From Escherichia coli (GTDB lineage: Bacteria; Pseudomonadota; Gammaproteobacteria; Enterobacterales; Enterobacteriaceae): DNA of 64,000 nucleotides. The stretch lies in NCBI RefSeq assembly GCF_003334785.1, contig NZ_QOWV01000017.1. The stretch is one strand, 5' to 3'. Shown here in pieces: positions 43,301 through 46,300 of the stretch (position 1 is its first letter; each line of letters starts with the position of its first letter). A program made the position numbers.

Positions 43301-46300
43301 ATGGCAGATGAGCATCTACATTATAAAGCGGGCAATGCGCGAGTGATTGTGGAATGGCGCGGCTGGCGTATTTTGCCGCTGGTGTGCTACGACTTACGTT
43401 TTCCTGTGTGGTCGCGCAATCTCAACGATTATGACCTCGCCCTGTACGTCGCCAACTGGCCTGCTCCGCGCTCTCTGCACTGGCAGGCATTGCTGACGGC
43501 CCGCGCGATTGAGAATCAGGCGTATGTGGCGGGATGCAATCGCGTCGGCAGCGATGGCAACGGCTGCCATTATCGCGGTGACAGCCGGGTGATTAATCCG
43601 CAAGGAGAGATTATCGCTACTGCCGACGCGCATCAGGCAACGCGCATTGATGCGGAGCTGTCGATGGCAGCATTGCGGGAATATAGAGAAAAGTTTCCGG
43701 CATGGCAGGATGCGGATGAGTTTAGGTTGTGGTGAGTGGGGGTTGTGTTTAAGGACGGGGAGAGTCGGGGTATTACTACGAAAGCCCGCTCCCCGCAAGG
43801 ACTGACGCCAGGTAGTTTCTGTCCATGGCTGCTTTTCGCATCTTACGTCTTAACCCTGCCTTGAATACCTTCTCATTCGTCAAAATATTAATAGCAATGT
43901 GCCGTATCCCTGAAAATAATTCTGCTGCGTTTCCTCTTCTTATTTTGTAGTCGTCTTCATTCATTACCACGTCCAGACGCCTGTGCAGCTTATTCTCCAC
44001 GTGCCAGTGGTTTCGGATTGCTGTGGCGAACTTCTCTGCGGTTAAATCAGCAGAACTGATATAATATCTGACCGTCATTTCTGGCTCTTTCTTTTGTTCT
44101 GCTATTATTGACCGAAAGGAGACTGCCACGCATAATTTCTTCAGTCCTTTCCATTCAAACGTGAAATCAATAAGTTCATCAGGGACATCGCAAACAATAT
44201 GAAGACGGATTTCTTCTCTGCCGTGACTCTTTTCACTCATTGCGTAACTGTCATGCTCTGGATTATTTAATTCTTTCAGCGGAAATTTTTCCTCAAAGGC
44301 TTTATTTAGCCGCCCCTGGTTTCCTTTTACCGCGAATAAATAATCACCTCCCTGTTTTTGTATCTTCTCTGCAATATCTTTCTGGCAACCCATCGCATCA
44401 GTTGTGATGATTTTTCCTTTAATATCCAGCATGTTAAGAAGTTCAGGGATAGCTGTAATCTCATTGGATTTCTCATCCGTCCTGATCTGTCCGATGACCA
44501 GACTGTGCATTGTAGAGAACGCACTAATGACATGAATCGCTCCCTTGCGGCGACTCTTGTCATAAGAATGCCGGAGTGTTTTTCCATCAATTGCGATGAC
44601 GTCTTTATCATCTGAAGTATGGCAATCTCGCATCCAGTTAATAAAGCACTCGTGAAATTTTGAAGGACTGATACAGGATACAACTCTGGCGATGGTATCG
44701 TGAACAGGAATACCATTTTCAAAATCACCATATTGTTTTAAAAAATCGAGATGTGTTTCCCCAAAATCCTCTATATCTTCCCAGCCTTCTGCACCAGAAA
44801 TAACGGCACAAATAGTCAACAGTAGAATATCTGACAATTTATGTTCCACTTTCCAGGCTTGTCTGTAATCGGGGATAATAGAAATATGTTCCATCAATTT
44901 TTTAAGTTCCATTTTGTTCTCCTTAATTATGTAAGGAGTATTTGATCATGTATAAGCAATAAAAAACAGCTTCAGGTAATGAGGAATATCTCAATTTTTA
45001 AACATAAAATGCGAATTATTTAGTACAAAAAATCAGCGTTACGTGATCTTTCCCTGCCCCTGCGCTCACTACCATGGCTCTTTACCACAGCAGCCGGGGT
45101 TGTTTGGGACCGACTTCCGACAGCAGATCCCGGTGGGCCTGCCACCATCTCTTCACAAGCTTATGCTTATTACATGCAAAACGTCCCGTTTTGCATCTTT
45201 GTGCCTACGGCACACCGGTGATCTTTCCCTGATGAGGGATATATTAACTATTGAACATTAGCGCGAATTATTTAGTGCAAAAAATCAGCATCACGTGATG
45301 CTTTTCCTGCTATTAATAACCTCCTCTATTTAACTATATTTTTCATTGATGCAATTCGTAGATTTGAAGAAGTTCAACTGCCACATTTTTATTTTTACTA
45401 TCGCAATTTTTATACCATACCCATGCTTCCGTATTTTTTACTTTTTTTAAATCATCCATAATAAAATCCCCACCAAAAACAGTAAAATACAATGTTTCCT
45501 CATTAAAAATAAAACTCACTGCCCCCCCCTCTTTTATTTTAATTTCCGCTTCATTTGTGTTCAAATCAACTTTTTTAATTACTCCATGTAAGTTGGGTTT
45601 TGATAGTTTTTCTACGCCACCATCAGGAGCGGGTAATATACATCGTTTAAGAACTTTAGCATTTGCACATCCAATAACCCAAATTAGAATGCACACTCCC
45701 ATGTTAATCGCATTAACGTGTCTTAAAACGTTCATATCTAATTCTCTCTCCAGGATGCGAATACATCCAACTTGTCACTTTCTTACACAACTCATCTACA
45801 TCTTCATTCTGTGCACGGGTACATCCCATAGTTGGTTTCCAGCCTTGTCGAGGAGCATAAGGATCGCGCAACGATGATCCCCCACCATGTAGCCATCTTG
45901 CTCTAGTATCTGTAGTATAGATCTTCGTTGTGCCATATGCTGCCGATATTCCTGATTCATTTGTCTCACAACCAACGACTTCACCTGTATATGGATCACC
46001 AGCACCACGTTGAGAACGACGATCAATTCTATTGCTACTATCAAAAGTCATTGAATCACCTGTTTCAGGATCATAATAAATAGTCACTCCTCCAGTCATA
46101 TCAGTAAGAACAAGAGGAGTTTCAGCACCTGCCCGGTCTGGAGCGGGAGGCCCATATACACTTATAACTCGTTCTAACCCCAGTGGATCAGTGTAACGTA
46201 TTGGTACCAGTGGATACGTGTATAGATTTATTCCCCCCTTCAACCCTATCGGATCCTGGGTGATATACCGCCCCTGCAACGGATCGTAGTACCGGTGACG

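Follow-up and report, generated by a model that had tools for sequence, protein, structure and literature searches.

A candidate exported immunity protein for the L,D-peptidase tip of a truncated Rhs protein in Escherichia coli

Toxins related to L,D-transpeptidases, and the proteins that neutralise them, have been described in several bacterial systems. Tlde1 (also called Tae5), from the Salmonella pathogenicity island 6 (SPI-6) type VI secretion system (T6SS) of Salmonella Typhimurium, has catalytic His and Cys residues and shows toxicity only in the periplasm; its immunity protein is Tldi1 (Tai5), a small periplasmic protein that carries a Sec signal (10.1101/2020.02.18.954545; PMC9638812). 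Tox-LD-peptidase was defined by Zhang et al. (2012) from RHS proteins with an L,D-peptidase end and a downstream immunity gene, with T6SS delivery predicted; Imm57, which is mostly alpha-helical, and Imm16 are its predicted immunity families (PMC3482391). Shigella and Escherichia Rhs proteins ending in an L,D-peptidase-like domain (“Tae7”; Shigella sonnei WP_052983304.1) have been described in a preprint, as have unannotated Tai7 immunity proteins of Rhs-fused Tae7, predicted to have a membrane helix, and orphan Tai6 and Rap1a genes in S. Typhimurium. The present study concerns a small open reading frame (ORF) that overlaps the end of an rhs gene in a 64,000-nucleotide (nt) stretch of Escherichia coli DNA (assembly GCF_003334785.1, contig NZ_QOWV01000017.1), hereafter the window. 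The ORF is likely to encode the cognate immunity protein, exported by Sec, for the predicted L,D-peptidase tip of the adjacent Rhs. The two elements, in window coordinates, are as follows.

45343..45735, minus strand: immunity ORF, 130 amino acids, ATG start (ORF list; RefSeq WP_001101839.1; family homologues)
45716..46174, minus strand: Rhs C-terminal toxin tip, 153 amino acids past DPLGL, predicted YkuD-type L,D-peptidase (Pfam YkuD; alignment A1; Foldseek)

The initial annotation, made from the sequence alone, had given the coordinates, ATG start and N-terminus of the ORF exactly, and had described it as AT-rich and as overlapping the rhs stop; both descriptions stand. The rhs gene ends at 45713 on the same strand, leaving an overlap of 23 nt (45713-45735). 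GC content is 0.328 in the immunity ORF, 0.44 in the tip, 0.637 in the Rhs core and 0.507 in the window as a whole; at third codon positions (GC3) it is 0.24, 0.22 and 0.77 for ORF, tip and core, respectively. The length of the ORF is beyond chance: of 5000 shuffles of the low-GC stretch (501 nt), just 28 contained a stop-free run of at least 130 amino acids in any frame, and the probability of meeting no stop over 130 codons at the local composition is about 4e-6. RefSeq labels the identical 130-residue product (WP_001101839.1) “hypothetical protein.”

The tip matches Pfam YkuD, the L,D-transpeptidase catalytic domain (E 1.4e-4 and 3.4e-5), as do 8 of 11 tip homologues at E<=0.001. His96 and the sequence Gly-Cys118-Thr-Arg are invariant in the alignment of homologues of about 50% identity (A1), and the distance of 22 between His and Cys is typical of YkuD (~19-22). 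An AlphaFold model of the tip (predicted local distance difference test score, pLDDT, 78) was matched by Foldseek, with probabilities of 0.97-1.00, to the peptidoglycan L,D-carboxypeptidases Pgp2, Bd1075 and Csd6, to a YkuD transpeptidase and to DpaA. Fragments 99% identical to the tip are named “L,D-transpeptidase family protein [Shigella sonnei]” by NCBI. Searches of PDB sequences with phmmer gave chance-level matches or none for both the tip and the immunity ORF, and in a search with the tip-alignment profile only the included end of the Rhs core was matched, not the toxin domain. Identification of the tip as a Tlde1/DUF2778 effector was rejected on the absence of a DUF2778 match, the spacing of 22, and the lack of any phmmer match in the PDB, Tlde1a included, at E<=10. 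The tip is thus best described as a predicted peptidoglycan-directed thiol peptidase, which would be active only in the periplasm, where its target lies; it corresponds to the domain that Zhang et al. (2012) named Tox-LD-peptidase in RHS proteins.

The immunity ORF is one of about 100 representatives of an unnamed family that has no Pfam or NCBIfam model; NCBIfam and PADLOC matched neither the immunity protein nor the toxin protein. When the ORF alone was used in a word-indexed search, all homologues retrieved were E. coli copies, and the family was revealed by an exhaustive search; a profile search of genome contigs with a narrow alignment found only a contaminated metagenome-assembled genome with E. 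coli sequence. The mature part of the protein is the conserved one.

45403..45642, minus strand: conserved core of the mature protein, bounded by the codons for Cys32 (45640-45642) and Cys111 (45403-45405) (alignment A2; AlphaFold2)

The core motif is C-x-LP-x-PDGG ... F-T-x-F-GGD ... W-V-W-x-x-C, in which P35, D38, G51, G88 and G89 are invariant in alignment A2 and C32, L34, I53, W107 and C111 nearly so. AlphaFold2 (AF2) predicts a small all-beta barrel (mean pLDDT 88), and by structure comparison this is an OB/DUF5666-like barrel, a common type; no known immunity protein was matched by the fold. The two near-invariant cysteines, Cys32 and Cys111, probably form a disulfide in the periplasm. 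An assignment to Pfam DUF4367 (E 4.6e-4 for the E. coli protein alone, found in 1 of 35 family members) was set aside as fold-level noise.

Pairing of this family with the toxin domain is seen beyond E. coli, where a homologous domain lies directly 5' of family members at two unrelated loci. In one of them (L027), a C-terminal Rhs fragment with a homologous tip (hidden Markov model E 2e-60) is followed by family member P0066; in the other (L026, Variovorax davisae), a remnant of the toxin domain, interrupted by one stop, lies 15 nt upstream of P0079 within an orphan Rhs array. The closest homologue, P0058 (50% identity), occupies an array encoded on one strand, Imm57 - Rap1a - Imm57 - P0058 - ... 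- MafI2, which also includes DUF7668 (metagenome contig L013, 2376-8213; also L014 and L015) and in which no toxin gene was detected. From the toxin side, a signal-peptide protein was found downstream of the toxin in all six sampled toxin-family loci. The toxin-immunity arrangement proposed in the initial annotation from adjacency and overlap is thereby strengthened, the adjacency recurring at two unrelated loci.

Export is predicted from the N-terminus of the ORF, which contains the sole hydrophobic segment of the protein (residues 7-26); AF2 places a helix at residues 4-23.

45658..45735, minus strand: part encoding the putative signal peptide, codons 1-26 (PROSITE PS51257 rule; only hydrophobic segment, residues 7-26; AF2 helix 4-23; 96 of 97 family members)
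45700..45702, minus strand: second in-frame ATG, codon 12 (no Shine-Dalgarno match upstream)

The predicted layout is an 11-residue n-region with Arg5, the h-region MGVCILIWVIG, and a lipobox, VIG/C23, whose Cys23 codon lies at 45667-45669; ANA/K, with cleavage after Ala24-Asn-Ala26, may serve instead as a signal peptidase I site. A hydrophobic signal segment comes directly before the conserved Cys in 96 of the 97 family members. The exception, P0066, has its hydrophobic segment (ILFICLFFITPNAFG) in an in-frame extension 5' of the called start, and this extension overlaps the toxin stop in the same arrangement as in E. coli. An exported immunity protein for the Rhs tip, as first proposed, is well supported because the peptidoglycan target is periplasmic, the signal segment is family-wide, and the adjacency to the toxin recurs.

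The surroundings of the pair bear on what the gene could do in this strain.

46175..49792, minus strand: Rhs core, a 5'-truncated pseudogene without about the first 51 codons (RefSeq “missing N-terminus”; full-length Rhs in L012)
49834..51117, plus strand: C-terminal part that is left of tssM/icmF, adjoining the 5'-truncated rhs (junction created by the T6SS-cluster deletion)

The immunity ORF is flanked by an ISAs1 (H-repeat) transposase and the Rhs pseudogene. At the deletion junction (~49793-49833), the 5'-truncated rhs is joined to the 3' part of tssM/icmF and the T6SS core genes are gone; VasL, Hcp and ykfM are retained beside the deletion, followed by tRNA-Asp and dnaQ. Neither the truncation nor the tssM/icmF junction was mentioned in the initial annotation. 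The exact tssM'-'rhs junction is common to 57 complete E. coli genomes, and alternative deletions occur elsewhere, for instance in E. coli 1303 and as an in-frame VgrG-Rhs-tip fusion in strain EC7. Strain CE0021a (L012) has a full-length Rhs with the same tip and an intact immunity gene, and by comparison the window Rhs is short of about 51 N-terminal residues (MSGKPAARQGD...), which we take to be the PAAR-like N-terminus of such Rhs proteins. Since both the Rhs N-terminus and the T6SS core have been lost, the neighbouring toxin would be undeliverable in the window strain. The ORF cannot protect against its own neighbour's delivered toxin, and is in effect an orphan immunity gene.

Tip and ORF behave as one mobile cassette, separate from the Rhs core: they share a GC3 of ~0.22-0.24 against 0.77 for the core, and the cassette is 99.4% identical between the aspV-linked window locus and the rhsE/ydcC locus of L012 (5227-9838), against 94.2% for the Rhs cores. 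The cassette is present at >=99% identity in 1026 of 5426 complete E. coli genomes (~19%), and intact and decayed copies also occur at the rhsE/ydcC-pptA locus. Five differences separate the window cassette from that of L012: W19L, K98I and N117K in the immunity protein, and S46C and E73G in the tip.

A number of observations weigh against an expressed and exported cognate immunity protein, or against parts of that reading. Three of the toxin homologues have an unrelated signal-peptide protein as their downstream neighbour, so that the pairing is not exclusive; these neighbours were rejected as distant relatives of the family (hhalign probability 0.2). No toxin of the tip family was found within about 5 kb in 6 of 9 sampled contexts outside E. 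coli, relaxed thresholds included; these six are small-ORF arrays on the same strand, which is typical of poly-immunity islands. A strict lipobox precedes the conserved Cys in just 4 of 97 members, and the closest homologue, P0058, aligns ASA/K to ANA/K and has no lipobox. The spacing from GGAG to the first ATG is long, at 12 nt. All five cassette differences are non-synonymous, a number too small for a selection test. The promoter scan revealed no convincing promoter for the immunity gene in the truncated-rhs context, giving weak consensus matches only (6 versus 3.4 expected), and literature searches for WP_001101839.1 yielded no paper mentioning the protein. With regard to the pairing, the toxins associated with this immunity family do not cluster clearly, their pairwise identities (46-63%) being mixed across immunity types. 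The pairing recurs without being exclusive, as is usual for polymorphic toxins, since Tox-LD-peptidase already has two predicted immunity families.

The initial annotation had offered either a Sec signal with an AxA site or a VIGC lipobox, and both motifs are present. In the long form of the protein the PS51257 pattern is GVCILIWVIGC, with Cys23 inside the range 15-35, a basic residue (Arg5) among the first seven, and six uncharged positions ahead of the lipobox. On balance a lipoprotein is slightly more likely than a soluble periplasmic protein. A soluble protein, with cleavage by signal peptidase I behind Ala24-Asn-Ala26 and an incidental VIGC, is nevertheless a real if less probable alternative: the 93 of 97 members without a lipobox resemble ordinary Sec/signal peptidase I substrates, the P0058 alignment mentioned above places a comparable site at the same position, and a diverged copy, P0019, has His at the position of Cys23. 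What speaks for lipidation, apart from agreement with the full PS51257 rule, is that the three other lipobox-bearing members carry theirs (LAAC or VAGC) independently, and that the Shigella flexneri protein, 99% identical, bears the UniProt name “Lipoprotein,” albeit by auto-annotation. The destination would be the periplasm either way.

It is unlikely that the immunity gene is a silent, decaying relic of a dead Rhs/T6SS locus that gives no protection. Such a fate would be in keeping with the truncated Rhs, the deleted T6SS core, the lack of a strong promoter in the scan, and the 0 synonymous and 3 non-synonymous changes between immunity-gene copies. Many database copies are also disrupted, by IS1 insertions, by the deletion in BL21, and by frameshifts at a homopolymer within the ORF.

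45522..45529, minus strand: G8 homopolymer tract, codons ~69-72 of the immunity ORF (frameshifted database variants diverge there)
45287..45302, minus strand: terminator-like hairpin and T-run, 41 nt past the immunity stop codon (consensus match only)

Variants P0011, P0015 and P0016 shift frame exactly at the G8 tract, and the ORF is annotated as two pieces in several complete genomes; these frameshifts could be real slippage, or some of them homopolymer sequencing errors. Against decay, the intact 130-residue form outnumbers all others by a wide margin (its cluster has 1292 sequences), about 19% of complete E. coli genomes keep the cassette at >=99% identity, and protection would be useful because there are attackers whose full-length Rhs ends in this tip.

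Where translation begins was treated as decisive in the initial annotation, which held that the ATG at 45702 would give a signal-less form and that the choice of start would determine localisation. The in-frame ATG exists (45700-45702, codon 12), but neither consequence follows from it: the 119-residue form, which reads MGVCILIWVIGCANAK, loses only the 11-residue n-region including Arg5 and retains all of the hydrophobic core as well as the lipobox and AxA motifs. A start there (precursor MGVCILIW...) is in any case improbable. The codon lies 10 nt past the rhs stop, where re-initiation by terminating ribosomes is possible, and the product would retain its cleavage motifs; it has no Shine-Dalgarno match upstream (+0.3 kcal/mol), the product lacks a charged n-region of the kind that precedes the h-region in family precursors, and it falls outside the position and charge limits of PS51257. 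The first ATG (45735) is the likely start because it is the RefSeq choice, has GGAG upstream (-6.4 kcal/mol), and gives the only form that agrees with PS51257. That the ORF is no immunity gene at all, being a generic small periplasmic beta-barrel beside an Rhs tip, would suit its common OB/DUF5666-like fold, the lack of a match to any known immunity protein, and the many sampled members that adjoin no recognisable toxin (most of them), but is very improbable given that the same toxin domain adjoins family members three times independently, that the gene travels with the tip as a cassette, that P0058 sits within an immunity-gene array, and that other members lie in same-strand small-ORF arrays typical of poly-immunity islands.

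Some further features of these loci can be recorded. In BL21 (L010, BL21-AI, 3987-4358), an IS1-linked deletion ends at window position 45700, inside the signal-peptide region; residues 1-12 are replaced by LESLP, with a non-ATG start, and BL21 probably makes no exported immunity protein. Between the immunity gene and the ISAs1 transposase of the window is a 121-nt group II intron D1-D4-2 fragment (45026-45146, minus strand; Rfam RF01999, 81.8 bits, E 1e-16), located between 37-nt direct repeats (45011-45047 and 45263-45299) that are 92% identical and 252 nt apart. A stand-alone toxin homologue of 196 amino acids, P0052 (L002, 2940-5190, on a 369-kb metagenome contig), carries a signal peptide itself along with what remains of the Rhs-core end motif, lies outside any Rhs or T6SS context, and is flanked by a Transglut_core2 protein and an unrelated 197-residue signal-peptide protein. 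Two chromosomal genes of the window were identified by RefSeq synteny: dpaA (37349-38089, plus strand), a YkuD-fold peptidoglycan-Lpp amidase and structural relative of the tip (PDB 8ikr), and ivy (42338-42811, minus strand), a periplasmic lysozyme inhibitor. Their position within 8 kb of the cassette is probably a coincidence.

The preferred reading, a Sec-exported cognate immunity protein, suggests the following course of events. Translation would start at the first ATG (45735), overlapping the rhs stop and possibly coupled to rhs translation, and the signal peptide would direct export of the precursor across the inner membrane. The protein would then either be lipidated at Cys23 and, with Ala at +2, pass to the outer membrane, or be cut after Ala26 and remain soluble in the periplasm. 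The mature barrel of ~100 residues, with its probable Cys32-Cys111 disulfide, may bind the toxin in the periplasm and block the active-site cleft or its access to peptidoglycan stem peptides, by analogy with Tldi1 and Tlde1. In the window strain protection would be afforded only against E. coli firing this tip from a full-length Rhs, of the CE0021a type. The data show the ORF, its overlap and composition, the fold class and catalytic residues of the toxin, the family-wide signal segment, the cassette linkage and the recurrent adjacency; binding and blocking, the disulfide, lipidation, expression and the protective role are all points that we infer.

If orphan immunity of this kind is real, it would shape which E. 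coli strains are killed in the gut by T6SS-armed relatives. The analysis suggests a likely function and location for a hypothetical protein encoded in ~19% of complete E. coli genomes and degraded in BL21, links a family that has no name yet with cell-wall toxins delivered by Rhs proteins, and provides a clean example of immunity kept after the weapon was lost. The pair itself is an ordinary toxin-immunity pair and leaves the understanding of such systems unchanged. With somewhat less assurance, the ORF can be proposed as the E. coli founder of an immunity family not characterised so far, defined by a signal peptide, an OB-like barrel with Cys-x-LP-x-PDGG and a conserved Cys pair, that would neutralise Rhs-borne YkuD-type toxins through a binding mode unlike that of Tldi1 or Imm57 and whose E. 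coli member would be kept as orphan immunity, after loss of the weapon, in about a fifth of strains. If confirmed, the pair would provide a third type of immunity against L,D-peptidase toxins and a tractable inhibitor for YkuD-fold enzymes.

Compared with the described systems, the locus shares with Tlde1/Tldi1 an L,D-transpeptidase-related fold with His and Cys in the toxin and a small immunity protein with a Sec signal, here predicted. Tlde1, however, is a stand-alone DUF2778 protein with H121 and C131, whereas the tip is fused to Rhs, matches Pfam YkuD, and has H96 and C118; the gene for Tldi1, a DUF2195 protein, precedes that of its toxin, whereas the immunity ORF lies downstream of the tip, and Pfam DUF2195 matches neither the ORF nor any of 35 family members. 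With Tox-LD-peptidase the locus has in common an RHS-borne L,D-peptidase and a downstream immunity gene, and the homologue P0058 lies between two Imm57 genes. The immunity ORF is a predicted beta-barrel, in contrast to the mostly alpha-helical Imm57, and Pfam Imm57 (PF15596) and Imm16/DUF2750 match neither the ORF nor the 35 family members. The ORF may be of the unnamed Tai7 type that goes with Rhs-fused toxins; compared with Tae7/Tai7, the tip scans as Pfam YkuD and not as DUF2778. As in orphan and poly-immunity islands, an intact immunity gene has been kept after loss of the toxin or secretion system, but the orphan state here arose from a tssM-rhs deletion fusion rather than from the accumulation of genes.

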